Assembly (NCBI GenBank): GCA_035515475.1
Contig: DATJBF010000005.1
Span: forward strand, 41,420 to 105,419
Origin: Verrucomicrobiia bacterium
GTDB lineage: Bacteria; Verrucomicrobiota; Verrucomicrobiia; Palsa-1439
Direction of reading: 5' to 3'
Length of the DNA stretch: 64,000 nt
The notes beneath the pieces were generated by a model. The model saw nothing but the letters and a program-made list of their open reading frames with translations, had not been told where the DNA came from and made no database searches. Every line of letters begins with the position of its first letter. The first letter of the stretch is position 1. Shown here one piece after another: positions 30,814 through 50,289 of this stretch. The translations under genes and the position numbers were made by a program.

Positions 30814-31303
30814 TGTCGATGCCAGAGAGGGTGCCAGTTTGACAATAACTTGTCGTACAACGGCTTTCGAGGGCTGGTTCGTGGTCGCTAGAACGCCACA
30901 AAGCTGACAATTTGGCGGCGTGTGGGGGACGCCTCGACAACTTGTCTCGGTCGTCGATGGTGGGTATACGATGCTGGATGCTGGACGGTGGTGACAGGGT
31001 CTGCGACCGATGACGCTGGAACTTCAATCAGGTTTCGGTCGTCTCCCGTCGCCGATCCTCTCATCGCCGATTTCTTATCTTCTCCCCTTGCGCTTGCGAG
31101 GTTCGGGCGTAAGTTCTAGCGAGAGAGCCGAGCGGACACCTCTCAGCACTCAATGGGAAAGGCCTTCGGGCTTACCTCGACAAAGATCGGGGATTTAGGA
31201 ATCGGGGAGTGCGACACTCGGCTCTCTTTTTTTGTGAGTTTCGGACATTGCTCGAGCCGGTGCCGTGAGCGACCGGGACTCGATCATCTTGGAGGCCGAC
31301 CGC

Positions 31304-33322
31304 CTAGAACCGCACGGTGCAGCTGGCGCTGGCGAGGTGGGCGATGTAGTTGTCGACGCCGCCGCTACTGCGGTCGTCGTAGGCATAGTATCCGTAGCGG
31401 AGGCGGGCGATGATATGATTGGAAATCCGGTGGGTGAGACCGACGAGCAGCCCGTGGCGTTGGTAGTCCAATCCCAACGGGAGACCGGCGGCTGAGTTGT
31501 CGGTGAAATTGTCCGAGCGGGAGTAGGTGTACTCGACGTTCACGTCGGTCTTCTTGTCGAGCGCGTAGCCGGCGGTGCCCATGATGGTGTACACGTTGCC
31601 GACGTAATCAACCACGGCCGGGTTTCCATTGGCGAACGACGAGGTGCGCGTGTCGTCAAGCGAGAAGAGGCCGGTCACGTACAGGCGCGCGATCGGCGTG
31701 ACCGTGGCGCTGACGCTGTAGATATTGGCGTCGAAATTGCCCGAGGTCAGTTCGCCACCCGGCGCCAGCATGGGAACGGAGTCGGTGGTGGTCTTGATGT
31801 CGGTGGCCAGCTTCTGGTAGCGGAACGCCACGTTGAAGTAGCGGCAAGGGCGCAGCGTCAACTTGGCGGTTACCTCGTCCTCGATAAAGTTCTGTCCCGT
31901 AATGAACGCGGGATAGCCCGCGATCGTGTCGAGAGTGTGGTCGTAGTCGTTGTCGTAGATGCTGTGGCGGTACCGGCCGGCGAGGGTGACCCGGGGAAGC
32001 GGCGCGGTGTTGAAGCCGACGGTGTAATCCTGGCGCCAGATGTCGGTATCGGTCTTGCGGGCGAAATCCAGCGCGGCGTCTTGGGTCTCGCGTTCTTCGA
32101 GGTCGATCGACTGTTCGTTCCACCGTCCTTCGGCGTAGAGCGTGGTGAACGGAATCTTGGTGTAGCGCAGCCCGACGGTCTCTTCGAGGCTGCGCTTGTT
32201 GTTGCTGCTATGAATGAGCGCTTCGGGGCTGTTGGTCGCGCCGCCGCCCGCGAGCTGGGTCAGGAACGCGTCGGTGAATCCATGGGTGTCCGTCTTCTCG
32301 GCCTCGGCTCCGGCGGCGATGGTCAAGCCGGCGAACGGGCCGAACATGGTGTTGAAGTTGACGACGTGGGAGTCCACATCGACGGCAATCACACTCGTGA
32401 CCCAATCCCGGTCAAACGGAGCACTGAACGGCTCGGTGTTGATGGACAGGCCGCCGCCACCGTTGAGGCTGGTGAACAAATACCCGAGCGACCAATACAC
32501 CTTGTCGTTTACATGCTGGTCCATGCGGAACGCATTGGAGAACTCGTCGTGATGGTAGTGCTCGGTGACGGTGACGGTCTGGCCGGCGGCGGAGACCAGG
32601 TTGGTGGAGGCATCGTGCCGTTGGTCGACGTTGCGAGGATGTTCGTAACGGAATTGATCGGCCAGATGCAGGCTGTTGATGTCGTGTTCCACGTCGGCCT
32701 TGATGATGTCGACCGTCTCATTGACGTGCTCGTAGGACGGGAAGATGTTACGGGTGGTGATGCCCTGGGTGGTGGCGCCCCATTCCAACAACGATTCTTG
32801 GCCCTGGCGGATCTGTCGCTCCACACCCAAGGTAAGCTTCGGCAGGTTCGGCAGCGTCAGCCCCACCTCGGCGAAGGCGTCGCCGTGGCGGACAAACAGA
32901 TCCTGCGCGGTCCCGAACGCAGGTGGAACCAGACCCCGGAAAAACCCACCGGCGCTGTCGTAATACGACTGGAATTCGGTGAAACCTCCGCGGACGAAAC
33001 CCACGTCGGGGTTCACGATTTCCAGCCGCAACTTGTAGTCTTCGTCGTCGAAGAGTGCCCGGCCTTGGACATTCAACTGCCAATTCTTGTTGAGCTTCTG
33101 ACTATAGGTCGCGTCTTCGATCCCGCCCGACCAGCCGTTCTTGATCCACCAGTCCTGACGGAACTTGTTCGCGTCGCCCTTCACGGTAACGTACTGGCCC
33201 CCGGATGTGACGCTCACTTCGGGAGGCGACGTCGAGTTGGTTTCCGCCGTCGTGGCCGGGGGAGACACGAGCGCGAGCGCGGGAAGGCCGATCATGAACA
33301 TTATCAGGATCGATCGTTTCAT
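31304..33322 (-). CDS. large outer-membrane beta-barrel protein (MtrB/PioB-like porin of a porin-cytochrome conduit)
   Basis: Signal peptide (MKRSILIMFMIGLPALALVS), about 670 aa of alternating amphipathic beta-strand pattern rich in Y/G/T/N, and terminal residue Phe (…CTVRF). Immediately downstream of two multiheme cytochrome genes in the same orientation. Confidence 0.6.
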   Translation of the reverse strand: MKRSILIMFMIGLPALALVSPPATTAETNSTSPPEVSVTSGGQYVTVKGDANKFRQDWWIKNGWSGGIEDATYSQKLNKNWQLNVQGRALFDDEDYKLRLEIVNPDVGFVRGGFTEFQSYYDSAGGFFRGLVPPAFGTAQDLFVRHGDAFAEVGLTLPNLPKLTLGVERQIRQGQESLLEWGATTQGITTRNIFPSYEHVNETVDIIKADVEHDINSLHLADQFRYEHPRNVDQRHDASTNLVSAAGQTVTVTEHYHHDEFSNAFRMDQHVNDKVYWSLGYLFTSLNGGGGLSINTEPFSAPFDRDWVTSVIAVDVDSHVVNFNTMFGPFAGLTIAAGAEAEKTDTHGFTDAFLTQLAGGGATNSPEALIHSSNNKRSLEETVGLRYTKIPFTTLYAEGRWNEQSIDLEERETQDAALDFARKTDTDIWRQDYTVGFNTAPLPRVTLAGRYRHSIYDNDYDHTLDTIAGYPAFITGQNFIEDEVTAKLTLRPCRYFNVAFRYQKLATDIKTTTDSVPMLAPGGELTSGNFDANIYSVSATVTPIARLYVTGLFSLDDTRTSSFANGNPAVVDYVGNVYTIMGTAGYALDKKTDVNVEYTYSRSDNFTDNSAAGLPLGLDYQRHGLLVGLTHRISNHIIARLRYGYYAYDDRSSGGVDNYIAHLASASCTVRF

Positions 33323-33332
33323 GAGCGCATCC

Positions 33333-34199
33333 CTAGTACCGCAAGTGGGAGTTGACATCCGAACCATGCACCGCGGTGTGACAGCCGGCGCTGAAACAGG
33401 TGCCGCGGCTCAGGAACGGCGTGTGATCGAACTGGCCGATGATGGTCATGCCCCCCGAGCCGGGCAGCGCGACCTGGGCGTGGCATTTCAGGCACAGATT
33501 ATTGTCCTGCTCGGTAAGCAATTTGTCGTTGATGGAGCCGTGCACGTTGTGGCAGGTGGTGCAGCCCTCGCGCAGTGCTTCGTGTTCGAACACGTGCGGC
33601 CGGGCCTGCTCGCGGTGGCATCGGGCGCAGGTCTCATTGGCGCGGGTGAGAAACGTGCCTTTGGCCTGCATGATGTTTTCGCCGTGCGGATCGTGGCAAT
33701 CGGTGCAACTCATTCGGCCTTCTTTGACCGGATGATGGTGGGGAAGGCTGAACTCCGCGTTCTTGTCGAGATGGCATTGAAAACACATGTCGGGGCCCTT
33801 GCCGGAGATGATAAATCGATCCTTGGGCGTGCCGCCGCCGGCATCAACGTGCAGGCTGCCCGGCCCGTGGCAGGATTCGCAGCCCTGGCCCTCGACCCGC
33901 TCCCCCTCGCCGGGAATCTGGATGCGGGCATGCGCGGTGAGTTTGAAGTTCTGGACTTCCTTCTCGTGGCAGAGCGCGCATTGGTCCATGCCGACGTACT
34001 TCGCCCCGGGAATCATCGGCGGCGCCACGACAACCCGGTCCACCGTCGCACAAGAGATCAAGAGTCCGACGATGGCGATGCCGCCGATGATGCTTCCCAG
34101 GTACAGCTTCCTGGAAGTAGCCGTGCTCAAGGCCTGTCCTCGTTCAGCGGAGGTCCGCGCTCGGGAAATCGCCGGTAACACCGCCGTAGGGATTGCCAA
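33333..34199 (-). CDS. periplasmic octaheme c-type cytochrome (MtrA/OmaB-like)
   Basis: 7 CxxCH plus one CX4CH (CALCH, CESCH, CFQCH, CTDCH, CARCH, CTTCH, CLKCH, CFSAGCH) in about 260 aa; N-terminal signal/anchor. True start probably slightly downstream of 34199 (the ORF overlaps the upstream stop). Confidence 0.85.
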   Translation of the reverse strand: MAIPTAVLPAISRARTSAERGQALSTATSRKLYLGSIIGGIAIVGLLISCATVDRVVVAPPMIPGAKYVGMDQCALCHEKEVQNFKLTAHARIQIPGEGERVEGQGCESCHGPGSLHVDAGGGTPKDRFIISGKGPDMCFQCHLDKNAEFSLPHHHPVKEGRMSCTDCHDPHGENIMQAKGTFLTRANETCARCHREQARPHVFEHEALREGCTTCHNVHGSINDKLLTEQDNNLCLKCHAQVALPGSGGMTIIGQFDHTPFLSRGTCFSAGCHTAVHGSDVNSHLRY

Positions 34200-36732
34200 C
34201 GGTGGTCGTCCGCCTGTCGAACGTGTTCGTACTGAGCATCGTGTAGGTCCACTGCAGGAGGCGGACAGTGTAAGCGGTATTATGCACGCCGTGGCTCAAC
34301 TCGCGGGCGATCATCTGGTAGTTCCAGACGGCGGCATGCTGAGCGGTCGCCACAACCGTGTTGGTGGAGTACCCACTCCAGAACGGGTAACCGGCGCTAT
34401 GCTTGAGGGAGTTTGTCGCCGTCGAGCTGTCCACGCAATTCGTCATCTTGTCTTCCAGATTGGCCAGCAGGCCATCGACTTCCGTCTGCACGCCGCTGAC
34501 CGTGCCGTCACCGTTGTAGTCGGCCGCGCCGGGGAACCCGCTTCGGACAATCGAGACGTGATCGAAACCTTCGGCTTCCGTAACCGGATCCACGCCGGCG
34601 TGGCACTGGTTGCACGCGGCAATGTCATCTTCCCCCGTCAATCGGTCGCTCATGCTGAACGTGTGATCGCCGACCGTGTTCACGCCGGCGTTATACATGT
34701 GGCAATCGATGCACTTGGCCACACCGGAGTGCGCCGAGTTTTCGAGGGTGACGCTAGCCACCGGCACGAGATTGGTCACTCCGCCGGTGACCACCGTCGC
34801 CACCACATTGGTGACGGTGTCGAACCCGAGGAGGATGTCGGTTGCCGTGCTTTCGTGGGGTAAGCTACTCATGTAATACGGCTTGCCGCTGCTGACTTGG
34901 TACGGATTCGCGCGGGCGTTGTGGCATTGCATGCACAACGCGGAAGCGCCCTGACCAGTCAGGACGGCATTGGTGCCGGTCGAAGTATCAATGCTGTCGA
35001 GCGTGACCGTGTCATACACCCGGACCTGATGAGCATCCGCCGGGAACATCGCGACGTTGTGTGGATCGTGGCAGGCCTGGCAGGTGAGCCGGCCGGCTTC
35101 CAAGCGCGTGAGCGCCTTGCCCTTCAGGTAATCGACGAAGCTCGTCGGCGAATGGCACTTGGCGCACGAAGGGTTGGGGGCTTCGCCGATCGACACGGAA
35201 AGATATTCATCATCGGCGCCGTGCGGTCCCAATCTCCATTGCTTGGGCCGGTTATGGAAATGGCCATCCTGATGGCAAGTGGCGCACACGGCGACGTCCA
35301 GGTTGGCCGACTCGGCACCGGGGTGCTGGCTACCAGGGCCGTGGCAGCTTTCGCACTGGATGTTGGCCTTGTTCTGCAACGCCGCCGGCATCGCCGCATA
35401 GTTGCCGTACTGCAGCACGGTGGGGAACGTCCAGCCGACTTCCTGCTGGACCGCGTAAAAGTTTCCATTAGTTGCCGAAGGTGACTGGTTGTAGCCCACG
35501 GTATGGCAGGCCAGACAGCTGGCATTGTACGAGGAGCCCAGCAGCCCGTCGATGCCCCGCTGGGCCATCGTGGCGTGCAGCGTCTGGCTCCACGGCGTGT
35601 AGTAATCTTCCAATCCGACCAGCGGGCTGGTTCCGTGACACGACGCGCAGGTGGCGACCCCGACATACGTGGCTCCCCGCACGGTCACGAACGAAGAGTT
35701 TGTCTTCCCGCCGCCGCTCACTGTCAGTTGCAGGACATAATCACCTTCCGCGTCCGGTTCCAGGGACGGCGTGCGTGTCTTGGAGCCCACCAACACCGCG
35801 GTCGAACCGGTCGGCTTGGCCGTGATACTCCAACTGTAGGTCGAGGCGTTTGTTCCGTTGGGTGCCCCGGTCAAGTACTGTCGCTCGCCGAGCGGGATGG
35901 ACGGCTGTCCCGGTGAAACACTGGTCGAAATCACCGTGACGGTACCCGTCGCGGCATGCGCCGCATCCGAAACGATGACTTGAAGATGGTAGGTGGTCGC
36001 CGTTACCTGCTCTGAGGTGAAGTGGACGAGGTTCGAGTTCGTCGCCAGATCGTACGAGTTCTCCAGATCGACGGGATCCAGGACGTTGGTGACGCCGCCG
36101 CTCGTGACGTCCAGCAAATTAGTGAAGCTGGTGAGCGGCAGTGTGTTAAATGTCGGCGCATTTGTGGTCGTGGAACTGAACGTCGCGTTTGTCCGCACGT
36201 CGGTGTCGGTCAGGCTCCAGGCGTACGTGAGGGGCGGAGTGAATCCGTTGGTCGAGACCGCGTCCGCGTTGACGGCGACGTTCGTGTTAAATCCGACATC
36301 GTAAAGAGTCGTTTGCGGCGTGGTGGGCGCGGCGGCTGCGCTGATCGTAATCAGAACCGACTTCTGGCCGATGTTCCGGCGACCGAGCTTCGCTTTCACG
36401 CGCAGCACGGCTGTGCCCAGGAAATTGGTCGGGATCGCCACCGAGTCGCTCGTTACCGACATGACACCGGCGACGACTGAGTTTGTGAGGGCGGGGAAGA
36501 GCACCCGTAATTTCTTACCCGTGAGCCGGCCTTTGGTAACGAGAACACCCGGGCTCGTCACGGTCAGATTGAGTTGATACGTGAGCGTGCCGCCGGATGT
36601 CGGGCTCCCGCCGATCTGGAGCGTTCCCAGTTGGGCTGGTGGAGGTTTGGCCGCGCAAACGGGCTGCAAAACCGAAGTCACCAGCGCGCCGACCAACAAG
36701 CTGGTGCCAACAAACAAGGCGTGTCGAGACAT
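34144..36732 (-). CDS. large secreted/cell-surface 9-heme c-type cytochrome with N-terminal beta-rich (Ig-like) repeats
   Basis: Start MSRHALFVGTSLLVGALVTSVLQPVCA (signal) with GGAGGA RBS. About 380 aa of Thr/Ser/Val-rich strand-like repeats, then 9 CxxCH (CASCH, CLACH, CESCH, CATCH, CAKCH, CQACH, CMQCH, CIDCH, CNQCH). Confidence 0.85.
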   Translation of the reverse strand: MSRHALFVGTSLLVGALVTSVLQPVCAAKPPPAQLGTLQIGGSPTSGGTLTYQLNLTVTSPGVLVTKGRLTGKKLRVLFPALTNSVVAGVMSVTSDSVAIPTNFLGTAVLRVKAKLGRRNIGQKSVLITISAAAAPTTPQTTLYDVGFNTNVAVNADAVSTNGFTPPLTYAWSLTDTDVRTNATFSSTTTNAPTFNTLPLTSFTNLLDVTSGGVTNVLDPVDLENSYDLATNSNLVHFTSEQVTATTYHLQVIVSDAAHAATGTVTVISTSVSPGQPSIPLGERQYLTGAPNGTNASTYSWSITAKPTGSTAVLVGSKTRTPSLEPDAEGDYVLQLTVSGGGKTNSSFVTVRGATYVGVATCASCHGTSPLVGLEDYYTPWSQTLHATMAQRGIDGLLGSSYNASCLACHTVGYNQSPSATNGNFYAVQQEVGWTFPTVLQYGNYAAMPAALQNKANIQCESCHGPGSQHPGAESANLDVAVCATCHQDGHFHNRPKQWRLGPHGADDEYLSVSIGEAPNPSCAKCHSPTSFVDYLKGKALTRLEAGRLTCQACHDPHNVAMFPADAHQVRVYDTVTLDSIDTSTGTNAVLTGQGASALCMQCHNARANPYQVSSGKPYYMSSLPHESTATDILLGFDTVTNVVATVVTGGVTNLVPVASVTLENSAHSGVAKCIDCHMYNAGVNTVGDHTFSMSDRLTGEDDIAACNQCHAGVDPVTEAEGFDHVSIVRSGFPGAADYNGDGTVSGVQTEVDGLLANLEDKMTNCVDSSTATNSLKHSAGYPFWSGYSTNTVVATAQHAAVWNYQMIARELSHGVHNTAYTVRLLQWTYTMLSTNTFDRRTTTVGNPYGGVTGDFPSADLR

Positions 36733-36757: not shown

Positions 36758-36777
36758 TTGGCAGGGCACGTGCCAGC
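36758..36777 (-). promoter_or_regulatory. candidate sigma-54 (-24/-12) promoter upstream of the 9-heme cytochrome gene
   Basis: Minus-strand sequence CTGGCAC-GTGCC-CTGCC matches TGGCAC-N5-TTGCW except for one position, about 25-45 nt upstream of ATG 36732. The adjacent gene encodes an NtrC-type sigma-54 activator. Confidence 0.35.
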
Positions 36778-37078
36778 CCGCCTCTCGGGCTCCACAAGGA
36801 CCTAGCCATCAAACGCTTAATAAGCCTTTAGCTCTTTCGTCGGTCGAGGTAAAGCTAATTCTAGCGCGACTTCGCTCGGTCGATTGCGTGATTCCGCGCG
36901 GACTCCGCGATGGGTGTCGTCGCGCCGGCGCCATTTCATGCGGGTTTCAGGGAAGGCGAGCGCCCGTGGCACAACCACTGCTGGGCCGAGACGCGCATGT
37001 TATCGGCCAAAGTACTCTGGTCTGTCGTCGCCTTGATTGGGCTCGCGGTTCTGGCTCTTTCGGCCATCGTGATTGTCA

Positions 37079-38476
37079 TCAGCACGTCGCCGCGCTAGGC
37101 TCGCCCGCCGCGTCCAGCAAACCGTACTTCACCAGCCGCCGTCGCAACGCGTCGCGTTCGATGCCCAACAATTCCGCCGCGCGGGTTTGGTTGCCGCCGG
37201 CGCGCTCCATCGCCTGCAGGACGAGTTCGCGTTCGACTTCGGCCAGCGCCACGCCCCGGCCGGGCAGTTCGACCACCCATTTCCCGTTCTTCTTCACGCC
37301 GGCCCGGATTTCAGGAGGGAGATGCTTGGGCTGAATGACGTCGTCGGATTCCAGGATGACCAACCGTTCGACGGCGTTGCGCAACTCGCGGACGTTCCCC
37401 GGCCAATCGTAACACCGCAGCGCGTCCCCGGCCTCGGGGGACAATTGTTTCGGCGACTTCTTGAATTCTTCGGCAAAGTGCTTGAGAAAATGTTCGGCCA
37501 ATTGGGGAATGTCCTCGCGTCGTTCTCGCAACGGCGGGATGTCGACCGAGATCACCTTCAGTCGATAGAGCAAGTCTTGGCGGAACTCACCACGCGCCAC
37601 GGTTTCGGTGAGGTTCTTGTTGGTGCAGGCGATGACGCGGACATCCACCGCGATGTCCTGCGTACCGCCGACCCGGCGAAATTGCCGGGTCTCGAGTACG
37701 CGCAGCAACTTGGCCTGCATCGCCGGTTTGAGGTCGCCGATTTCATCGAGCAGCAACGTGCCGCCGTCGGCCAACTCGAATAACCCTTTCCGGGACGTCT
37801 TCGCGTCGGTGAACGCGCCGCGCTCGTGGCCGAACAATTCGCTTTCGAACAGGTTTTCCGGCACGGCCGAGCAATTGATGTCGAGGAACGGATGTTCGGC
37901 GCGTCGGCCGCCGAAATGGATCGCCCGCGCGGCCAGTTCCTTGCCCGTCCCGTTCTCGCCTTCGATCAGCACCGTGGTCGCGTCGCTTTCGGCAATCTTG
38001 GCGAGCAACTCGCGCGCAGCACGCATCGGGGGGCTTTGGCCGACGAGATTCTCCAGACCAAACTTCCGCGCCTGTTGGCGTTGCAGGCGGGCGACTTCAC
38101 GGCGCAGCTTTAATTCCCCGCGCGCCTTGTCCAGCGCCACGCGGACCTCATCGAAGTCGAACGGCTTGCACAGATAATTGTGGGCGCCGAGCCGGACGCA
38201 TTCCACCGCGCGGGCGATGCCCGTATCGGCGGTCAACATGATGACGGCGATTTCCTTTCCGAGATTCTTGATTTCCTGCAGCACCTGGACGCCGTCCATG
38301 CCGGGCAGGCGCAGATCGAGCAGCACCAGATCGTACCCATCGTTGCGGATCAGGTTGAGTCCTTCCTCGCCGCTGGGGGAGGTCTCCACCTCGTAGCCTT
38401 CGCGCATCAGCTTTTGCTGAAGCGACCAGCGCACCAGCTTCTCATCGTCAATGACCAATACTTTGGCTCTAGCCAT
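37079..38476 (-). CDS. sigma-54-dependent response regulator (NtrC family)
   Basis: Receiver (KVLVIDDEKLVRWSL...LVLLDLRLPGMDG), AAA+ sigma-54 interaction domain (GENGTGKELAARAIH, ESELFGHERGAFT GAFTGA motif) and C-terminal Fis-type HTH. Confidence 0.9.
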   Translation of the reverse strand: MARAKVLVIDDEKLVRWSLQQKLMREGYEVETSPSGEEGLNLIRNDGYDLVLLDLRLPGMDGVQVLQEIKNLGKEIAVIMLTADTGIARAVECVRLGAHNYLCKPFDFDEVRVALDKARGELKLRREVARLQRQQARKFGLENLVGQSPPMRAARELLAKIAESDATTVLIEGENGTGKELAARAIHFGGRRAEHPFLDINCSAVPENLFESELFGHERGAFTDAKTSRKGLFELADGGTLLLDEIGDLKPAMQAKLLRVLETRQFRRVGGTQDIAVDVRVIACTNKNLTETVARGEFRQDLLYRLKVISVDIPPLRERREDIPQLAEHFLKHFAEEFKKSPKQLSPEAGDALRCYDWPGNVRELRNAVERLVILESDDVIQPKHLPPEIRAGVKKNGKWVVELPGRGVALAEVERELVLQAMERAGGNQTRAAELLGIERDALRRRLVKYGLLDAAGEPSAATC

Positions 38477-39983
38477 GGCTGAATACCTCCTCCCGTACGT
38501 CCGCTTCGGACGGAGCCCAGGCGGCAAATTCCAGGGTGAACGTGCTTCCCCGGCCGACGTCGCTGGTCACTTCAATCACGCCCCGGTGTTTTTCCACGAT
38601 GGTCCGGGTAATGGCCAATCCCAGTCCTGTGCCGCGGTGTTTCGTCGTGAAGAACGGCGAGAAAATCTTCCGCAGGTTCTCCGGCGCGATGCCGTTGCCC
38701 GTGTCGCAGATGCTGACGCGGACGGACCGATCGTGACCGGGCCGCAACACTTTGTTCAACGTTTCCGCGCGCACCGTCAACGTACCGCCGTCGGGCATCG
38801 CTTGAACGGCGTTCAGGAGGACGTTCAGGACCGCCTGTTGAACTTGGGAACTATCGGCGCAGATCGGTGGCAGGTCGGCCGGACACTGCTCGACAATTCG
38901 CACGTGCTGCTTCTGAGCGTCGGGCCGAATCAGCCCGAGCATGGGCTTGATGATATCGCTCACGGCGCAGGCCGCGATCTCCGGGTCGCGCTGGCGCGAG
39001 AAATCCAGCAACTCCCGCAAGGTGGCGTTCAAGCGCGCGATCTGCCGCCGGATTTCGGCGACAATCTCGCCCTGCTGTCCGTTGCCGCCGTTTTCCGACA
39101 GCACTTCCACTGCCGCGCCGATGCCGGCCAACGGATTGCGGATCTCGTGGGCGATGCCCGCGGCCAGTTCGCCAATCGAGGCGAGCTTGCCCGCTTGTTG
39201 GATCTGCTTCTCGTGCGACTCGTGCAATTCGCGTTTGGCGGCATCGAGGCTCTGCAGCATCCGGTTGAAACCGGTGGCGAGCTCGCCGATTTCATCTTTG
39301 GTCTGCGCGGCGACCCGAACGTTGAGGTCGCCGGCCTGGACCTTGCGCATTTGTTCCAAGACCTGACTGACGGGTTGAGTGACCAGCCGGACGATGAGCA
39401 GCCACAACACAACGCCGACCAGCACGAAGATCACCACGCCGTAGGCGATGAGCAGATTGCGGTTGCTGGCCACGCTGGCTTCGGCGGGCGCGAGGGACCG
39501 TTCCAGGACAATCGCGCCGTTGTATCGCTGCCGGGGATCGTGACATTTCTGGCAGCTGTCGACGTTGGTGACCGGGCGCATGGCGACGGCGAGACGTTCG
39601 CCGTTTTCGGTCCGCTCCCCCTGCAGCACACGGCCTTCGCCGAACAATTCCGGCGGCACGGTCATTACGGCGTGCTCGATCTCCTGGGTTTCGGTCGAGA
39701 ACGCCACCGTGCCGTCGACGCGGATCACGCGGCCCCGGCGGATTTCGTCGCTGGCCTGCATCCGCATGAGGAATCCCTGCAACTCCAGATGGCGATCGCT
39801 GAGCATCACGCCGTTGAGGTACTCGTGCACCATCGAGGCCGCGATGAGATTCTGCGCCTGGGTGCGCTCGTGCCACCATTCGCTTTGGACGCGAATCACG
39901 AAATACGTGTAGATCCCGATTACCATGGCAACCGTTACGCCGACGGCCACGAGAACTTTCGCCGTGAGATTACGTCGCAGCAT
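38469..39983 (-). CDS. sensor histidine kinase with periplasmic heme-c-binding (CxxCH) sensor domain
   Basis: Two TM segments flank a periplasmic domain of about 150 aa containing CQKCH. HAMP, HisKA (IAHEIRNPLAGI) and HATPase_c (DTGNGI, GTGLGL) follow. Overlaps the downstream regulator start by 8 nt. Confidence 0.85.
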   Translation of the reverse strand: MLRRNLTAKVLVAVGVTVAMVIGIYTYFVIRVQSEWWHERTQAQNLIAASMVHEYLNGVMLSDRHLELQGFLMRMQASDEIRRGRVIRVDGTVAFSTETQEIEHAVMTVPPELFGEGRVLQGERTENGERLAVAMRPVTNVDSCQKCHDPRQRYNGAIVLERSLAPAEASVASNRNLLIAYGVVIFVLVGVVLWLLIVRLVTQPVSQVLEQMRKVQAGDLNVRVAAQTKDEIGELATGFNRMLQSLDAAKRELHESHEKQIQQAGKLASIGELAAGIAHEIRNPLAGIGAAVEVLSENGGNGQQGEIVAEIRRQIARLNATLRELLDFSRQRDPEIAACAVSDIIKPMLGLIRPDAQKQHVRIVEQCPADLPPICADSSQVQQAVLNVLLNAVQAMPDGGTLTVRAETLNKVLRPGHDRSVRVSICDTGNGIAPENLRKIFSPFFTTKHRGTGLGLAITRTIVEKHRGVIEVTSDVGRGSTFTLEFAAWAPSEADVREEVFSHG

Positions 39984-41247
39984 GCCGGGCCTCCCGGGCC
40001 ACCCCGACGGATGTTGGCGAAACCGGCGCACCGGCCGCCGGGTGCTCAAACAGCGGCAGGTAGCGGGCGGCCAGGCCAAAAATGACCAGGCCAAACGAGA
40101 GCAGATTCAACGTGATCACGATCTCGATCCACGAGGGAAAATAATGCGAGCCGGTGGCGGGCAACAGGCCGATCCAGGCCACGTTGAGCCGGTTGAGAAT
40201 TACTCCGACGATCACCGGGATCGCGGCGGCAAACGCCCAGCGCCGGCGGCCCGACCACCGGGTCTTCAGCAGCACGAACAACGGCAGCGTCAGCAGCACC
40301 ATCTCCACCGTGAACGTGAATCCTTGGAGCGGATAGGCGAACACGTCCACCCACGCGTTCCGCGCCGTGAGATCGGCAATGCGCAGGAACAAATACAACA
40401 TCAGGAACGGGGTCATGCTCTTCGCCAGCACCGTCAGCACCTTCGGATCCAGTGGCCGCCGGAACATCCAAAACGACAACGCCGAAACGAAAATCGCCAT
40501 CGCGAAACCGGAGACCAATGCGCTGATGAAGAAAAACACGGGAATGAACGGCGAATACCACAACGGCAGCAGCTTCTCGGGCACGATCAGAAACAACGAG
40601 CCGAGCGACGATTGATGCACGGTCGACAGCACCACGCCGCAGATCACAGCAGGAACGGTCACGGCGTGGACGAAATGCTCCAGGCGATGCCAGCCGAGCT
40701 TCTGGAGAACAATCGGCGCAAACTCCACGGTCAACACGCACGTGTACAGGATCACGCACCACGAGACCTCGAAGAGCACGGACCGATGCTGCCAGCTCAC
40801 AATGGGCATCCAGATTTTGTAGTAGCGTCCGAGATCGACGATCAAGGCTCCCGACGCCGACAGCGTGTAGCAGAGATAAGCGGCCAGGACGATGGGACGC
40901 AGGATCGGGTAGAAGGTCCGAATGCGAAACACGTACGCCATGCACGCGGTCAGAAACCCGCCGGCGGCAAAGGCGATTCCGCACAGAACCATCGCCTTCC
41001 ACAAGCCCCACGGAAAAGCGTTTGTGAGGTTCGTGACGGCTCCCAACCCGAGCGTGTAGCGCGTCGCAAACGCATATCCGCCGAGACCCCACAGCGCAAT
41101 CAGGAACGCCCACCCGACGACGGCGGCGGAGAACGATCGCGGACGTTGCCGGCCTTCGAGGAACCAGCACGCGACCACCGCCAGACCCGCCATGACCAGC
41201 GCGGCGAAAATGCGAAACAGAATGAGCAGGAAATCCATTTCAGCCAT
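39970..41247 (-). CDS. NrfD/PsrC-family integral membrane quinol-interacting subunit
   Basis: 425 aa, about 10 TM helices, NrfD-like size and hydropathy; follows an NrfC-like Fe-S protein with an 8-nt overlap. Confidence 0.7.
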   Translation of the reverse strand: MAEMDFLLILFRIFAALVMAGLAVVACWFLEGRQRPRSFSAAVVGWAFLIALWGLGGYAFATRYTLGLGAVTNLTNAFPWGLWKAMVLCGIAFAAGGFLTACMAYVFRIRTFYPILRPIVLAAYLCYTLSASGALIVDLGRYYKIWMPIVSWQHRSVLFEVSWCVILYTCVLTVEFAPIVLQKLGWHRLEHFVHAVTVPAVICGVVLSTVHQSSLGSLFLIVPEKLLPLWYSPFIPVFFFISALVSGFAMAIFVSALSFWMFRRPLDPKVLTVLAKSMTPFLMLYLFLRIADLTARNAWVDVFAYPLQGFTFTVEMVLLTLPLFVLLKTRWSGRRRWAFAAAIPVIVGVILNRLNVAWIGLLPATGSHYFPSWIEIVITLNLLSFGLVIFGLAARYLPLFEHPAAGAPVSPTSVGVAREARHAAT

Positions 41248-42145
41248 GCGTTTCCTTCCGGCTGCGCAGACGGGACACGGCGCTGAGGATCAATCCCAGC
41301 CCGATCACAATGTAGGGAACCTTTGCCAGCCAGTTCCAGGTCAAGGCGGGCAGGGGCGTCGTCGGCAGGCCCGTGGGCAGACCGAGTTGCTCCACGGGGA
41401 TATCCGACAGGTACAACCACGAGGTTCCTCCCACCACGCGGTCGCCAAATAACGTGACGTACCGTTTGGGTTGCGCGGCGACGCGGGCCCGGGCTTCCTG
41501 CAAGATGTCCCGGTGTTTTCCATACTTCAACGCGCCCGTCGGACAGGCGGCCACGCAGGCGGGCAAAAGCCCGGCGGCCGTTCGGTCGTCACAGAAATCG
41601 CACTTGTTCACGCGAGGAGTCAACGCGTTGTCCCACTCGTATTTCGGCACGTTGAACGGGCACGCCAGAAGACAGTAGCGGCAACCGATGCATCGGTCGT
41701 CCCGCCAGACAACGGAACCGCGAGCCGTCTTCTCCAGCGCGGCGACGGGACAGACCGAAACGCAGGCGGGCTCCAGACAATGCATGCATTGCCGTTTCAC
41801 GGGGACCTGACGCATCGATCCCTCGGACGTGGGAACGTCGCGGAAATCCACAAACGTCCGCGATTTGAACGTCAGCTTGCCGTCGCCGGGCCCGTACCCG
41901 AACGTTGCGGGCGCCAACCCCGGATAGCCCTGCCGCACCAAGCAAGCGTTCTCGCAAGCCCGGCATCCAATGCACCGCGTGAGATCGACCAGCACCGCGC
42001 CGTCCCGGCTCGCGTCGTGGGACCCGCTTTCGGCTGACGACGCGGTCGCACCGGCCGCCAGCAGCGACAGCCCGGCCATGCCCCGGCGACAAAACGTGCG
42101 CCGCGAGATGCGCTGGGCAAACAGATGATGGCGTGGCTCCGTCAT
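41240..42145 (-). CDS. Tat-exported 4x[4Fe-4S] ferredoxin subunit (NrfC/PsrB/HybA-like)
   Basis: Twin-arginine signal (RRTFCRRGMAGLSLLAAGATA) and four Cys clusters (CIGCRACENAC, CMHCLEPACVSVCP, CIGCRYCLLACP, CDFC...CVAACP). Confidence 0.85.
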   Translation of the reverse strand: MTEPRHHLFAQRISRRTFCRRGMAGLSLLAAGATASSAESGSHDASRDGAVLVDLTRCIGCRACENACLVRQGYPGLAPATFGYGPGDGKLTFKSRTFVDFRDVPTSEGSMRQVPVKRQCMHCLEPACVSVCPVAALEKTARGSVVWRDDRCIGCRYCLLACPFNVPKYEWDNALTPRVNKCDFCDDRTAAGLLPACVAACPTGALKYGKHRDILQEARARVAAQPKRYVTLFGDRVVGGTSWLYLSDIPVEQLGLPTGLPTTPLPALTWNWLAKVPYIVIGLGLILSAVSRLRSRKETHG

Positions 42146-43152
42146 GGTTCCTTCGCGTCGGGAGGTTGGTTGTGCGCGGACGGATCCCGCGCCGGACCCG
42201 AATCACGGTCCTGTTTGCGGGCCCGGAAATGGGGCACGGCATACCCGCAGAATACTCCCAAGAGAAACGCCAGGGCGATCAACGGGACAAACACACGTTG
42301 GTTTGCCTGCAAGTCGGCGCGCAGCTTGGCAGCCTGTTCCTCCAGGGAGCCAACCTTGTTCTCCAAGGCCTCGGGGTTGGCCGCTTTGAGCCGGGCCACT
42401 TCCTGTTCGAGCGTAGCCGTCTCATGGCTTTGGTGGACCATTTCCCGATGGCATCGGATGCAGGTCTCCGCGCCGACCGTGAAGGTGTGGCCGCGGACGC
42501 CCGTTCCGCGGATTTTCGGCGTGCCCGTCGCCAACTCAGGCATGTGGCAGGTAATACAGTGCAGTCCTTGGGAGTGATGCGTCGCGTGGGTGAAATCCTT
42601 GAGTTGTTCGGCGTGACAGGTGCCGCACATCTGGTCGGGATCGTCTTTGCGCAACGCCATGCTATGCATTTTATGACAATCAAAACAGCGGACGTTTTTC
42701 TGGCCGTGGGCGCTGACGCGCCATTCCCCATAGGTGATGCTGTGGCACGCCTGGCAGACGTCCGAGGTCACCGGCAACGCCATCTTCTCCTTGTCGGGAT
42801 GATCGTCCTTCGCCGGGCCGTGACAGGATTCACAACTCACGCCGTCGTGAGAGAATTGCCCGGTTTTCCGGTCGTACTGGCTGGTGTGGCAGACGAGGCA
42901 TTCCCACTTGTTTCCCTGCTGCTCGCGGATCGCCAGGAACTCGGGATTGACCGCCCGTGCGTGGGCCGAGGCCGCCCAATCCTTGGTGTCCTGTTCGTGG
43001 CAGAGCGCGCACCGGTCAGACGCTTTCTCCTCGTCCGCCCACGTCGTCATTACGCCCCAAATGACCAATGCCGAAATCCCAATGACCAGATACCGGCAAA
43101 ATCCGAATGGCAGAAACAGGGGCGCGCGACGTGTTTTTTTGGTGATCGTCAT
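42142..43152 (-). CDS. membrane-anchored octaheme c-type cytochrome
   Basis: 8 CxxCH (CALCH, CLVCH, CESCH, CQACH, CFDCH, CGTCH, CITCH, CIRCH) with N-terminal signal anchor and C-terminal TM (PLIALAFLLGVFCGYAV). Confidence 0.85.
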   Translation of the reverse strand: MTITKKTRRAPLFLPFGFCRYLVIGISALVIWGVMTTWADEEKASDRCALCHEQDTKDWAASAHARAVNPEFLAIREQQGNKWECLVCHTSQYDRKTGQFSHDGVSCESCHGPAKDDHPDKEKMALPVTSDVCQACHSITYGEWRVSAHGQKNVRCFDCHKMHSMALRKDDPDQMCGTCHAEQLKDFTHATHHSQGLHCITCHMPELATGTPKIRGTGVRGHTFTVGAETCIRCHREMVHQSHETATLEQEVARLKAANPEALENKVGSLEEQAAKLRADLQANQRVFVPLIALAFLLGVFCGYAVPHFRARKQDRDSGPARDPSAHNQPPDAKEP

Positions 43153-45248
43153 TTGGTTGTTCCTTGGTCCTTCGGTGCTTGGTCATTGGTCGTTTCCGCC
43201 AATCCCTGCGGTTCATCCCGCCGTTTCTTCCCGATGAGCCACGACGGATTCATCGGGTATTCCTTCGGGTCGAAAATGACCCAGTAGAAGTGCCACACCA
43301 GGATCGCCAGCGTTGCCAGTAGCGCCTCGTAGAAGTGGATCACCTGGGCCACGTCGTGCCACACTTTTGGCAGGAGCCGCAACACCGTGTTGGTGAAAAT
43401 CAACATCGCGCCGGTGATGATCATGACCACCGAACCCCAGACCAGCGCCCAGTACTCCGCTTTCTCGACATAGTTCCAGCGCCGGTGCGGCGGTGGCGTC
43501 TTGCGCAAGCCGAGGTTGTACGCCAGTTGGGCGACGGCGTCCCGCAGATCATGCGGCACCATCCACAACGCCCACAAGTAGCTGCGGCCCCGGCGGGTAC
43601 CGACCAGTGTGAACAAATGGGCCACGAACAATACCGCGAAGGTCCAACCGCAGACGCGGTGGATCATCCCGCGGACGTAGGCCCCCGTTTCTCCGAACGC
43701 TCGGAACGGCCAGCTCCACACCGCGTCGGGGAATTTGTGCGCGAACCCGGTATAGGCCAACAGGACGAACAGTACCAGCAGCAACCAATGTTGGGCGCGG
43801 GCCAGCCGGGTCAATCGCAGTTCCGCGTGCGCATCGGCGTTTACCGCACGGATATGGGCGCGAGTTTTCCGCAGATAGTCGAGCGAATTAAACGCCACCA
43901 TCCCGCCGATGGTCACAACGATCAGCACGATGTAGAGCCGCGAAATGAAATTCACGAGGAACGGTTTGCCCTCCGCCGCGCCGGGCGGGGCATGAATTTT
44001 GAAGAACTCCGCGCTTAACCGCGTGCCGATGCCCGGATGACACTTGCCACACGTTTGCGGCAGATTCTTCGGATTGATGGTGGAAAGCGGGTCGCTGGCG
44101 GGGAGGATGTCGTGCACGCCGTGGCAGGAAGCGCAATTGGCCGCGGTGAGATCGCCGCCCTGCAATGCCAAACCGTGAAAGCTTTGGATGTAGGTCGTGA
44201 ACACGTTCGGGGGCAAGCGGTACTGCGTGATGATCCGCTGCGCCGCGTGACACTGCCCGCAGGTCTCGGGAATATTGGCCGGGGAAACCCGGGACGTCGC
44301 CAGTTTGACGGCCTGGATGGTGTGCTCGCCGTGGCAATCGGTGCACACGGGCGCATCGCGCACGCCCCGCTTGACCGCCTGGCCGTGAACGCTGCGCAAA
44401 TAGGTCTCTTCGACGTTCTCATGGCATTTCCCGCAGGTGTTGGGCACGTTCTGCCAGTACAACTTCGACTGCGGGTTGGTCGATTTGTGCAGGTCGTGCG
44501 AGCCATGGCAATCCGTGCAGACCGCTGCGTTCAGTTCGTGTTTCTTCAACAGCGCGATGCCGTGGACGCTCTCTTCGTAGCTCACGATCGGGCTGCGCTG
44601 GCGCAAATGAAATTTCTCCATCTCCGCCGTGTTGCCGTGGCATCGGCCACAGGTGTTGGGGATGTTGGTTCGATACACGGGCGAGGCGGGGTCGCGGTAA
44701 TTCAGCAACTCGTGGGGATTGCCGTGGCAATCCCGGCACGACGCCGCTTCCGAAACGCCCTTGTGAACGGCCTGGCCGTGATCGCTGTTCAGATAGATCT
44801 GCGTCTCCACCCGATGGCACTGGCCGCAACTGACGGGCTTGAGATGTTCCGCGTGCGGCACGTCCGTGATATCGGTATGGCAACTCGTGCACAGGTTTTT
44901 CCCGTGAATCGAGCGCGAGAATTTCTCTTCATCGATGAACAGCGAGACCACCTTACCTGCGGCGTTCGTTTCGACGAGCGTCTGATCAGAATGGCAGAGG
45001 AAACAGTCGGAATTTTCAATGGCCCGAGCGCTGGCGGCAACCGATAGAGCAGCGATGAGGAAGGCGCATCCCTGCGCCCTGATCCTCTTCGCCGACCAGC
45101 GGGGGCGAGGAGATGCTTGGGGCGCGTTCTCTCTCCCCGGGACGCACGGGAGCGGGTTCGCCGCCAACGTTAACTCATGCCGTCGCATAACTGTGCAGTC
45201 CACTGAGCAGGTAGTTGACGCCGAAGTAGGTGAAGATGACCGAGGCAA
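43149..45248 (-). CDS. CbcL-like fusion: 11-heme c-type cytochrome plus C-terminal diheme cytochrome b (HydC/FdnI-type) membrane domain
   Basis: 11 CxxCH in the N-terminal 420 aa. The C-terminal 250 aa has 4-5 TM helices with conserved His pairs (HWLLLVLFVLLAYTGFAHKF, HRVCGWTFAVLFVAHLF, HDVAQVIHFYEALLATLAILVWHFYW). The true start is probably a non-ATG codon downstream of 45175, since the ORF-track 5' end overlaps the ccsA-like gene. Confidence 0.8.
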   Translation of the reverse strand: MPRSSSPTSASTTCSVDCTVMRRHELTLAANPLPCVPGRENAPQASPRPRWSAKRIRAQGCAFLIAALSVAASARAIENSDCFLCHSDQTLVETNAAGKVVSLFIDEEKFSRSIHGKNLCTSCHTDITDVPHAEHLKPVSCGQCHRVETQIYLNSDHGQAVHKGVSEAASCRDCHGNPHELLNYRDPASPVYRTNIPNTCGRCHGNTAEMEKFHLRQRSPIVSYEESVHGIALLKKHELNAAVCTDCHGSHDLHKSTNPQSKLYWQNVPNTCGKCHENVEETYLRSVHGQAVKRGVRDAPVCTDCHGEHTIQAVKLATSRVSPANIPETCGQCHAAQRIITQYRLPPNVFTTYIQSFHGLALQGGDLTAANCASCHGVHDILPASDPLSTINPKNLPQTCGKCHPGIGTRLSAEFFKIHAPPGAAEGKPFLVNFISRLYIVLIVVTIGGMVAFNSLDYLRKTRAHIRAVNADAHAELRLTRLARAQHWLLLVLFVLLAYTGFAHKFPDAVWSWPFRAFGETGAYVRGMIHRVCGWTFAVLFVAHLFTLVGTRRGRSYLWALWMVPHDLRDAVAQLAYNLGLRKTPPPHRRWNYVEKAEYWALVWGSVVMIITGAMLIFTNTVLRLLPKVWHDVAQVIHFYEALLATLAILVWHFYWVIFDPKEYPMNPSWLIGKKRRDEPQGLAETTNDQAPKDQGTTK

Positions 45249-46017
45249 ACCCGATGACCGAGATCCACGCCGCGCGCTGGCCTTTCCAGCCGCGCATGAA
45301 CCGGCAGTGCAAGAACACGGCGTAGATCAACCACGTGATCAGCGACCAGGTTTCCTTCGGGTCCCAACTCCAGTAGGTGCCCCACGCGGAATTCGCCCAC
45401 ACCGCGCCGCTGATGATGCCGACCGTCAGGAACAGGAACCCGAACGAAATCGTCTTGGCCGTGGCCGCGTCGAACGCATCCACGTAGTCAATGGTGGCAC
45501 GGGCTTCCGTGCCTGTGCGTCCACGGACCGGTACGCCCGTGCCACCTCGGATTCGGACCGCCACGAGATATCCGACGCTCGCCGCAAACGCGACCGCGAA
45601 CGCACCGTAGCCGAGGAAGCAGGTGAACACGTGCACCGTCAGCCAGTTCGACCGCAAGGCGGGCATCAACGGCTTGATCGTCGAATCCTGATACGTGCTC
45701 GCATACGCCAGCGTCAGCACCGCCAGCAACGCCGTCGCCGCTCCCAACGCGGGAATCTCGCGGCGGACCCGCAACGCCAGGTAGACGACCACGACCGCCC
45801 ACGCGAACAACACGAGCGATTCGAACATGTTGCTGAACGGCGCCCGGCCCGCGCTGATCCAACGCAGGACGAGATAAACCGTCTGCGCGATCAGCCCGGC
45901 CGACAGCAGCCCGGTCGCCGCGGTCGCAAAGCGGCGTTTACTGGAAAACAGGTTCGCCGCCGCAAGCAGCAGCGCCGTCAGATAGCCAGCCAGGCTGAGA
46001 TTGAATGCGAACGTCAT
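45175..46017 (-). CDS. CcsA/ResC-family cytochrome c assembly protein (HemX-like, downstream of hemA)
   Basis: WWD-type motif WGTYWSWDPKETWSL with conserved His residues in TM helices. Probable start MTFAFNLSLAGYL; the ORF-track start at 46146 is an extension overlapping hemA. Confidence 0.75.
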   Translation of the reverse strand: MTFAFNLSLAGYLTALLLAAANLFSSKRRFATAATGLLSAGLIAQTVYLVLRWISAGRAPFSNMFESLVLFAWAVVVVYLALRVRREIPALGAATALLAVLTLAYASTYQDSTIKPLMPALRSNWLTVHVFTCFLGYGAFAVAFAASVGYLVAVRIRGGTGVPVRGRTGTEARATIDYVDAFDAATAKTISFGFLFLTVGIISGAVWANSAWGTYWSWDPKETWSLITWLIYAVFLHCRFMRGWKGQRAAWISVIGFASVIFTYFGVNYLLSGLHSYATA

Positions 46018-47101
46018 GGTCGTCCTTTCCGTCGCCTGGAGGGCGAGCCTCCCGGCGAGCCGTCGTCCCCTGCGGTTCGGCAGGAGCCTCACCCTCCACG
46101 TGCAGTTTGGGGAGCAACGCGGCGGTGTGTTTGTCGATGATGGCACGGCACAGCGCCAACTCCTGTTCGCGATGGTGCACGTTGTGGCGCACGATCGCTT
46201 CCAAATCGTCGATGTTGTAAAGGTAAACGTTGTCGATCCGCTGCGCGTCGGGATCGATGTCGCGCGGCACGGCGATGTCGATCAGGAACAGCGGACGGTT
46301 GCGCCGCGTCTGCATCAGCTTCTCCACGTCGGCCCGATGCAGAATCGTCTGGGGACAACCCGTCGAGCTGACCACGATGTCCACGTCGGCCATTCGCTGG
46401 AGACAGTCGTCGAACCGGATCGCCTGACCGTTGAATTCCGTCGCCAGGGCTTGCGCGCGGTCGAACGAGCGGTTGGAGACGAGGATCGATGGGGCGCCCT
46501 TCTTGGCGAGGTGGCGCACGCAGGCTTCGCCCATCTTGCCGGCGCCGATGATCATCACCGTGTGCTTCGACAAATCGTGACGGAAAATCTTCTCGGCCAA
46601 CTCCACCGCCACGCTCCCGACCGACGTGGCGCCGCGGCCAATCGCCGTGCGGGTGCGGATTTCCTTCACCGCTTGAAACGCTTTCTGGAACACGCGGTTA
46701 AGCGTCGCGCCGGTCAACCGCGCGGCATGGGCCGATTCATACGCGTGCTTGACCTGGCCCGTGATTTCGGTCTCGCCAAGCACCATCGAGTCGAGCCCGC
46801 TGGCGACCGAGAACAGGTGGGCGATGGCGTCGGCGCCATCGCGCAGATAGAGATGCTCCCGCACGTCGCAAACGTACTTCGAGAGCAACTGAAACAGCGA
46901 TTTCACGTTGCCGTTGACGGCCGGCGCGACGCCGTAGATTTCGACGCGATTGCAGGTCGAGAGCAGCACGACTTCGTCGAGGCCGCCGACGACCCTGAGC
47001 CGGCAACCGTGGCAGCCGAGCTGCGATGGTGCGATGGCGAGTTGCTCGCGCAATTCGACCGGCGCGGTCTTGTAGCTCAGCCCGGCGACAAAGAGGGTCA
47101 T
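45938..47101 (-). CDS. hemA: glutamyl-tRNA reductase
   Basis: MTLFVAGLSYKTAPVELREQL, catalytic LSTCNRVEIYGV, NADPH-binding IIGAGKMGE; GGAGGA RBS. The C-terminus may be shorter than the ORF-track end. Confidence 0.9.
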   Translation of the reverse strand: MTLFVAGLSYKTAPVELREQLAIAPSQLGCHGCRLRVVGGLDEVVLLSTCNRVEIYGVAPAVNGNVKSLFQLLSKYVCDVREHLYLRDGADAIAHLFSVASGLDSMVLGETEITGQVKHAYESAHAARLTGATLNRVFQKAFQAVKEIRTRTAIGRGATSVGSVAVELAEKIFRHDLSKHTVMIIGAGKMGEACVRHLAKKGAPSILVSNRSFDRAQALATEFNGQAIRFDDCLQRMADVDIVVSSTGCPQTILHRADVEKLMQTRRNRPLFLIDIAVPRDIDPDAQRIDNVYLYNIDDLEAIVRHNVHHREQELALCRAIIDKHTAALLPKLHVEGEAPAEPQGTTARREARPPGDGKDDHDVRIQSQPGWLSDGAAACGGEPVFQ

Positions 47102-47115
47102 GGGCCCCGTCCTCC

Positions 47116-47250
47116 CAAATCCGAAATCCGAAATCCGAAGCCGAGCCGCAGGCGAGACCTGCGCAGCAAATCCGAAACAATTTCCAAACTCAAATTTGGG
47201 AAATTCGGATTTGGCTCGTATTTCGAGATTCGAATTTCGGATTTCATTTG
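47116..47250. repeat. AT-rich array of direct and inverted AAATCCGAA/TTCGGATTT motifs between resB stop and hemA start
   Basis: aaatccgaaatccgaaatccgaag (three or more direct copies), aaatccgaaacaatttcc...gggaaattcggattt (imperfect 18-20-bp inverted repeat), ttcgaatttcggattt. Local GC is far below the flanks. Confidence 0.7.
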
Positions 47251-48446: not shown

Positions 48447-48727
48447 GGCCACCTTTCGTGTGACGGGCGGTGGCTTAGCAGTGGCCTTGCCAGTGGATGC
48501 CGCAGGTTGGGGCGACGGTCTGTAAGCGCTTGGCCTACAGTCGATTGCCGTGCGCGAAATCGCGCAGGCGACGAATCGGCTGCGCCGATCGTCGACCGAC
48601 AGATTGGCGGCGGGCTCCCGTTTCATGACAGCTTGTCATCAGTCGCCAAGCCAAGAGGCGATAGGGGGACGCGCTGCGTTGCAACCGAATCTTTGACTCG
48701 GCTCCGCTATTCGTCGCGGTGTCAACC

Positions 48728-50176: not shown

Positions 50177-50289
50177 CGTCAAGGCTCCTTGAATGACTGG
50201 TTCGTGTTCTGACCGGCTACTCCTCTGCCGGGCGATCATACCGACATCCCAGATTTTTTCCACACAAAAATGTTCGTCGTCAAACGTCC

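Follow-up and report, generated by a model that had tools for sequence, protein, structure and literature searches.

Heme-c sensors of the periplasm were described between 2006 and 2008, with homologous kinases noted in Anaeromyxobacter, and a preprint survey of 2026 ('sCache_heme') now counts some 20,000 members of the family, kinase fusions included. Geobacter sulfurreducens encodes twelve signal transducers with c-type heme motifs, eight of them two-component proteins, and GSU0599 is among them. Crystal structures exist for the sensor domains of the chemoreceptors GSU0935 (3B42) and GSU0582 (3B47), and in the former the heme ligands are His144 and Met60, Met60 ligation going together with reduction. 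Control of respiratory cytochromes by sigma-54 is likewise already established: BccR (GSU0598), made up of a receiver, a sigma-54 and a helix-turn-helix (HTH) domain, induces the bc-type cbcBA from a -24/-12 promoter as the redox potential falls. Here we analyze a 64,000-nucleotide stretch of DNA from a Verrucomicrobiia bacterium (contig DATJBF010000005.1, positions 41,420 to 105,419; hereafter the window) in which a sensor histidine kinase with a predicted heme-c domain and its neighbor, an NtrC-type sigma-54 activator, are encoded within a cytochrome operon. The best explanation overall, to which we give a probability of roughly 0.6, is that these two proteins switch on genes for electron export according to the redox poise of the periplasm.

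The closest precedent for this pair is GSU0599 of Geobacter together with BccR. Going by published descriptions, GSU0599 is also a two-component protein with heme motifs, and its gene number is adjacent to that of a sigma-54 activator of an inner-membrane cytochrome; it differs in having two heme motifs where the present kinase has one, and our literature search found no report of a role for GSU0599 in BccR signaling. BccR, in turn, is encoded divergently from its target, cbcBA, whereas the pair described here lies inside the cytochrome operon, and the outer-membrane conduit and the cytochrome maturation genes are among its predicted targets. With GSU0935 and GSU0582 the kinase shares the domain family, its position between two transmembrane (TM) helices with HAMP following, the CxxCH helix, the proximal His and the distal Met60; in contrast, those relatives are chemoreceptors with a methyl-accepting chemotaxis protein output, solved as swapped dimers, and ours is a histidine kinase of Verrucomicrobiota whose sensor is modeled as a closed monomer. 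The best-scoring models for the kinase core and the activator come from the NtrB/NtrC, AtoS/AtoC and ZraS/ZraR systems, but the input domains and regulons of these systems differ from those described here.

As regards the electron conduit itself, He et al. 2017 (PMC5615132), in the passages matched by our search terms, describe for Verrucomicrobia a cluster in which a large porin is encoded next to an 8-heme cytochrome of the periplasm and a multiheme cytochrome located outside the cell. This is the same type of conduit as in the window, and it comes from humic or anoxic habitats. The passages so retrieved from the Verrucomicrobia conduit literature, that paper included, mention no kinase, no sigma-54 and no regulator of the cluster; beyond what they contain, the present analysis links a regulatory pair and its promoters to it. 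The sensor type is already known, and the kinase is a well-supported further example rather than a new kind of system. The novelty lies in the lineage of the host, in the place of the pair inside an electron-export operon, and in the comparative prediction of a regulon, its promoters and a binding site.

The kinase and its periplasmic sensor domain

The minus-strand open reading frame (ORF) 38469..40094 encodes a sensor histidine kinase in which Pfam recognizes HAMP (E=6e-15), HisKA (6.5e-16) and HATPase_c (6.6e-26). The preliminary description of this DNA had called it as such, with a CxxCH motif in the loop between TM1 and TM2, and of that call only the start has had to be moved: the N-termini of the homologues, both from metagenomes and from 18 Verrucomicrobia genomes, read M-[LF]-R-R-x-L-T-A-K and all fall at the residue encoded by the ATG at 39983, so that the TTG at 40094 is probably spurious. 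The coding sequence then spans 38469..39983 on the minus strand, its first 14 nucleotides (nt) overlapping the end of the NrfD-like gene that precedes it, and specifies 504 amino acids (aa), from which all residue numbers given here are counted: TM1, a periplasmic heme-c sCache domain, TM2, HAMP, HisKA with H279, and HATPase_c. The class I (HisKA) boxes are intact (H279 in HEIRNP, the N-box, DTGNG as G1, FSPF as F and GTGLG as G2); the kinase core scores best against the AtoS and ZraS models, yet far under their equivalog cutoffs.

Two hydrophobic helices span residues ~6-30 and ~177-201. Since the N-terminus is basic (R3, R4, K9) and HAMP comes directly after the second helix, residues 31-176 are expected to be periplasmic, and with them the sole CxxCH of the protein, CQKCH at residues 144-148. 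Hydropathy and the position of HAMP rule out the reading of this loop as cytoplasmic, which would have undone the proposal of a periplasmic heme.

The sensor domain (residues 31-176; 39456..39893, minus strand) is, by sequence and predicted fold, a member of the c-type-heme sCache ("PAS-like") family of GSU0935 and GSU0582. Its match to PF21563 ('Mcp40H-20_sensor') covers profile positions 8-111 of 112 and scores 30.3 bits with the whole kinase and 32.6 bits when the domain is taken by itself, the cutoff being 27; sequence matches in the PDB are 3b42 (GSU0935, E=3.7e-5) and 3b47 (GSU0582, E=0.008), at about 20% identity. An AlphaFold2 model of residues 28-176 (pLDDT 91.5, pTM 0.85) has 3b42 as its top PDB match in Foldseek (E=2.5e-8), and next come WalK, CitA and DctB with their sCache/PDC sensor domains. 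The heme-attachment motif (C144, C147, H148; 39540..39554, minus strand) aligns with the CQSCH of GSU0935, and Met60 (codon 39804..39806, minus strand), the predicted distal ligand, aligns with residue 26 of the 3B42 chain, which is Met60 of GSU0935 by the same offset that makes His110 of the chain His144.

The pattern of conservation singles out the same residues. All 18 Verrucomicrobia orthologues have the CxxCH at residue 144 and Met60 within VM(L/I), and in an alignment of 22 sensor domains, whose identity falls as low as 21%, no column other than Met60, Cys144, Cys147 and His148 is invariant. An exhaustive phmmer search with the single sequence over 1.84 billion representatives returned no more than 33 matches, since members of the family have diverged too far to be reached in this way; those remote homologues that span the region all carry a CxxCH at the equivalent position. 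A chance occurrence of the motif is ruled out by its conservation in the orthologues, in the 22-sequence alignment and in the remote homologues.

Two points weigh against this reading of the sensor. The Foldseek TM-scores to 3b42 are just 0.45-0.5, with a root-mean-square deviation (rmsd) of ~12 Å, likely because the crystal is a domain-swapped dimer and the model a closed monomer; we do not take the high rmsd as an argument against homology. Heme attachment, moreover, both here and in the Verrucomicrobia orthologues, is something that we infer from sequence and not from biochemistry, and this speaks for an alternative whereby the CxxCH is a relic, or the heme purely structural, and the kinase senses something else, such as a periplasmic cytochrome or a 33-aa membrane peptide that is encoded beside the locus, is conserved and could modulate the kinase. 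We consider this very improbable indeed: the four heme-ligating residues are the sole invariants over a wide divergence, which indicates selection on heme binding and not on the fold alone, and in the solved relatives heme coordination shifts with the redox state. The kinase therefore very probably carries a covalent periplasmic heme, and the heme-binding sensor envisaged in the preliminary description is supported both by homology to 3B42 and 3B47 and by the invariance of the predicted ligands.

As to the wider affiliation of the domain, the Tll0287/DUF3365 profile (PF11845) gives 13.9 bits against a cutoff of 24.1, the CxxCH segment alone being matched. The 2026 survey joins GSU0582 and GSU0935 to Tll0287/DUF3365 through PSI-BLAST, and a superfamily tie of the kinase sensor to that family is plausible.

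Among the remote members (P0027, P0028, P0030, P0033, P0037 and P0053), proteins of ~700 aa contain three tandem heme-c sensor domains with one CxxCH each, ~125-135 residues apart, and others have two CxxCH inside one domain, a feature also described for GSU0591 and GSU0599.

The activator, its operon and the conduit

The gene that follows the kinase (37079..38476, minus strand) specifies a complete NtrC-type sigma-54 enhancer-binding response regulator of 465 aa, with a receiver (Response_reg, 3e-29), an AAA+ domain (Sigma54_activat, 4e-67), AAA_lid_14 and a Fis-type HTH (HTH_8, 1.4e-14) recognized by Pfam. Asp54, the Walker A motif GENGTGKE and a GAFTDA loop are all present; the loop is kept in 18 orthologues and is listed among the GAFTGA variants that are functional or compatible with activation (PMC4641369). 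The best matches are the AtoC, NtrC and ZraR models, far under their equivalog cutoffs. The activator ATG overlaps the stop codon of the kinase (ATGGCTAG), so the two genes, whose products had been proposed to be cognate, are also coupled in translation. The 64-kb window contains no second sigma-54 activator gene, nor does it contain rpoN.

Upstream, all on the minus strand, the operon comprises resB as its first gene (47244..48446), hemA for glutamyl-tRNA reductase (45938..47101), ccsA (45175..46146), a CbcL-like cytochrome in which 11 CxxCH are fused to a b-type cytochrome (43149..45188), an 8-heme cytochrome (42142..43152), an HmcB-like iron-sulfur (FeS) subunit (41240..42145) and an HmcC/NrfD-like subunit (39970..41247). 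The resB-hemA-ccsA segment brings heme synthesis and System II cytochrome c maturation into the operon of the kinase, and the genes from the CbcL-like to the NrfD-like one form a quinol-oxidoreductase-type module. Start and stop codons overlap at every junction from the CbcL-like gene through the activator, which indicates a single transcription unit; a scan of 31000-47500 for sigma-70 promoters and terminators produced nothing over shuffle expectation, a result with no bearing on operon structure.

Downstream of the activator and on the same strand, the conduit begins with an outer-surface multiheme cytochrome of 862 aa, with a PKD-like domain and MtrC/MtrF-like segments (34144..36732), and continues with a periplasmic 8-heme cytochrome resembling the MtrA/DmsE family (33333..34199, exact start uncertain; 288 aa with seven CxxCH and one Cx4CH) and a porin-like outer-membrane protein of 687 aa (31304..33367), which is syntenic in 12 loci. 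The gene set matches the cluster type of He et al., the assignment of the porin being derived from a weak beta-barrel match (OMP_b-brl).

A synteny scan of 185,579 species genomes retrieved 19 loci, all in Verrucomicrobiota metagenome-assembled genomes from peat, bog, lake and groundwater, with kinase identities of 60-77%. Eleven of them (group A) follow the order of the window, resB-hemA-ccsA-cbcL-like-cytochrome-FeS-nrfD-kinase-activator-conduit-ahbD, and the placement of the pair between an inner-membrane module and the conduit, already noted in the preliminary description, is thus reproduced in 11 syntenic genomes. Group B retains the kinase-activator pair, with the conduit on the opposite strand in L006, L008 and L009. 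The association extends to remote homologues with about 30% identity in the sensor: P0042 has the kinase and a sigma-54 activator with multiheme cytochromes on both flanks, P0029 has the order ResB-CcsA-kinase-sigma-54 activator, and in P0048 genes for receiver and sigma-54 domains precede the kinase.

On an unrelated metagenome contig (L026, 1261..6080; sensor identity 29%) the order ResB-CcsA-kinase-sigma-54 activator is found, so that the link between a heme-c kinase and System II maturation recurs outside this lineage.

Predicted sigma-54 promoters and candidate activator sites

Before the conduit, a -24/-12 promoter (TGGCACGTGCCCTGC; 36761..36775, minus strand) lies 28 nt upstream of the ATG at 36732, and a GGAGGA ribosome-binding site falls within this interval. 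Two 16-base-pair (bp) palindromes with the consensus TGCGCG-N4-CRCGCA (36863..36900), putative activator sites, stand ~100-125 bp upstream of this promoter and ~65-100 bp from a divergent -24/-12 element (TGGCACAACCACTGCT; 36967..36982, plus strand) that precedes a small ORF. A third promoter (TGGCAAGGCCACTGCT; 48477..48492, minus strand) is located 30 nt ahead of 48446, where resB likely starts, and ~60 bp upstream of it there is a perfect palindrome of the same motif as at the conduit (TGCGCGAAATCGCGCA; 48551..48566). All three promoters are TGGCAC-N5-yTGC[CT] elements with palindromes ~60-125 bp upstream, an arrangement akin to that of NtrC, whose sites are also palindromic and lie ~100 bp from -24/-12 promoters. 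The -12 element was relaxed in order to find these sites, which were then validated through conservation across genomes; the pattern TGGCAC-N6-TGC has two matches in the 64 kb, both of them in the 347-bp spacer between activator and conduit.

Comparison among loci bears directly on these predictions. The conduit promoter is kept in 8/8 group-A relatives that span the region, and an equivalent sigma-54 element is found directly upstream of the inverted conduit operon in the three group-B loci named above. When the spacers of nine loci are aligned, the -24/-12 blocks appear as invariant islands and the two palindromes as conserved blocks, and the resB promoter is invariant in all five loci that span it. 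In group B, the kinase operon and the conduit operon each have a related palindrome (TGCGTGAAACTGCGCA) ~104 bp upstream of their sigma-54 promoter. From these comparisons the conduit and the kinase's own operon appear to constitute one sigma-54 regulon with shared predicted upstream sites, and the predicted regulon exceeds the conduit in that it would also take in the kinase operon and the small peptide gene.

Some observations are less favorable to this regulon. The strict pattern TGGCAC-N4-6-TTGCW is unmatched in the window, the sites reading CTGCC or CTGCT instead; the palindrome pattern is no commoner in the window than in shuffles, for which reason we rely on its positional conservation across loci, and the attribution of the palindromes to the activator stands on co-location and conservation; finally, GACAAnTTGTC, another conserved motif, is found upstream of the resB promoter, where a further regulator may therefore act. 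It could accordingly be argued that an enhancer-binding protein encoded elsewhere drives the conduit or resB promoters and that the pair controls unlinked targets, all the more so as GACAAnTTGTC, present in both the ahbD and the resB regions, implies at least one other regulator nearby, and as binding by the activator is itself a prediction. This alternative strikes us as quite improbable. The activator is the only sigma-54 activator encoded in the window, the TGCGCG-type palindrome flanks its gene in every locus and stays with both promoters through rearrangement, the palindrome differs between groups A and B in step with an activator identity of 70-75%, and the linkage of kinase, activator and cytochromes is repeated in the remote homologues.

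Behind the divergent element lies an ORF of 33 codons (36997..37098, plus strand), which would encode a single-helix membrane peptide (MLSAKVLWSVVALIGLAVLALSAIVIVISTSPR) and which converges with the activator gene, the two 3' ends overlapping by 20 nt. The TGGCAC element at 36967 could be taken for a chance antisense site, a view that we discarded given the conserved small ORF that the alignment reveals behind it. The ORF is called in 8/9 group-A loci and the peptide is also recovered by tblastn in L003, giving 9/9; the GGCAC..TGCT core of the element is kept in 9/9 loci, and the variable sites of the ORF are distributed over the three codon positions as 22, 13 and 29. In the eight loci with the ORF called, the -12 GC is 15-16 nt from the ATG, which implies a near-leaderless transcript. 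The peptide matched no Pfam family. At the same position, two group-B loci, L009 (13120-13040) and L010 (6574-6494), have a different small TM ORF. MgrB is a precedent for feedback of this kind, as it feeds back on PhoQ, and by that analogy we may speculate that the peptide feeds back on the kinase.

Signal and proposed mechanism

Under the reading that we favor, ResB and CcsA, encoded in the same operon, would attach heme to Cys144 and Cys147, with His148 as the proximal ligand. By analogy with GSU0935 and GSU0582, the oxidized heme would be high-spin, and on reduction Met60 would become the sixth ligand, rendering the heme low-spin with His148/Met60 coordination. Met60 is predicted to sit on an N-terminal helix continuous with TM1, and NO or CO could displace it, as in those relatives. 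The switch of ligand would shift this helix relative to the Cache core, a movement that could be passed on to TM2, HAMP and the kinase core and change the phosphorylation of Asp54 of the activator. Once phosphorylated, the activator would bind the TGCGCG-N4-CGCGCA palindromes and open the sigma-54 promoters, as the comparative evidence suggests. Three targets are predicted: the conduit, with its outer-membrane cytochrome, MtrA-like cytochrome and porin; the pair's own operon, with heme synthesis, maturation, quinol oxidoreductase, kinase and activator, which would amount to positive autoregulation; and the 33-aa membrane peptide. A route for extracellular electron transfer would in this manner be built once the periplasmic carriers are over-reduced.

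The input is most likely the redox poise of the periplasmic cytochrome pool, because the predicted regulon is purely one of electron transfer, the distal Met is invariant, and BccR induces cbcBA as the potential falls. What tells against redox as the signal comes from the domain family itself: in the 2026 survey of heme-Cache domains, those fused to signaling modules behave as NO sensors, their spectra and ligand kinetics being NO-sensor-like and not O2-sensor-like, and GSU0582 and GSU0935, besides responding to redox, bind NO whether oxidized or reduced and also CO in the reduced form, Met60 being displaced. The same architecture and regulon could hence serve a heme that senses NO, or possibly CO, through loss of the Met60 ligand, nitrosative or denitrification cues then driving the electron-export genes. 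We regard this as unlikely, since the predicted regulon comprises only heme synthesis, maturation, quinol oxidoreductase, conduit and peptide genes and the operons contain none for NO detoxification or denitrification, since an invariant distal Met fits a redox-linked switch of spin state, since the domain falls under the threshold of Tll0287/DUF3365, the central model of the survey, and since BccR, the analogue in Geobacter, responds to falling redox potential.

Of the earlier suggestion that the pair gates the conduit in response to periplasmic redox, the first half is borne out insofar as promoter and palindromes are found in 8/8 group-A relatives and the predicted promoter follows the inverted conduit in group B; in the second half, redox is one candidate signal beside NO and CO. 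We infer what is sensed, in which direction the response runs and which protein binds the palindromes.

The wider window

Beyond the conduit, a gene for an AhbD-like radical-SAM protein (heme b synthase; 29578..30813, minus strand) scores 437 bits with TIGR04545 against a cutoff of 500; a low-complexity insertion of ~50 residues (~255-305), rich in R, S, P and G, splits its match to the family model in two. It is preceded by a conserved sigma-54 -24/-12 element (TGGCATCGACAGTGCT; 30809..30824, minus strand), and its upstream region (to ~31000) has GACAAnTTGTC in 2-3 copies instead of the palindrome. Similar motifs (TGACAAGCTGTC, GCCAATCTGTCG) occur at ~48590..48640, upstream of the resB palindrome. 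This distribution suggests that heme and cytochrome genes are under a second regulator. The AhbD-like gene is directly followed by one for a PocR-sensor/AraC-type regulator (28693..29577, minus strand), and as the stop of the former abuts the start of the latter, the sigma-54 promoter may drive transcription of both together.

The surroundings have the look of a heme and cytochrome island, with two more radical-SAM genes, a siroheme decarboxylase (NirDL/AhbAB-like), a small 4-heme cytochrome, a multiheme cytochrome and one of the NapC/NirT family distributed over 24469..27035 (minus strand), 49583..50180 (minus strand), 51913..54689 (minus strand) and 54902..55939 (plus strand); the radical-SAM genes together with the decarboxylase point to a siroheme-dependent heme pathway. 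A gene for an ORF6N-domain protein (48728..49399, minus strand) separates the resB promoter region from the next cytochrome gene. This domain is typically found in phage and antirepressor-like genes, and the gene may mark a past insertion.

Implications

These results provide a testable model consisting of a sensor with four predicted heme-ligating residues, an activator, three conserved sigma-54 promoters and a candidate 16-bp site. They also offer a predicted regulon for a heme-c Cache kinase, in a family whose literature is structural and spectroscopic and in which we found no assigned transcriptional output, and a search of metagenomes for the promoter and palindrome signatures could reveal electron-transfer genes that are co-regulated.

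A more far-reaching version of the model, rather unlikely in our estimation, would have a self-amplifying sigma-54 circuit read the redox state of the cytochrome pool and co-induce the full electron-export route together with the near-leaderless 33-aa peptide, which would feed back on the kinase. Metagenomes from peat, bogs and groundwater commonly contain Verrucomicrobia with porin-cytochrome clusters; these bacteria are uncultured and have been proposed to respire humics or iron. If true, the self-amplifying circuit would give a heme-c Cache kinase its first assigned output and would constitute the first defined regulation of extracellular electron transfer outside Proteobacteria and Desulfobacterota.

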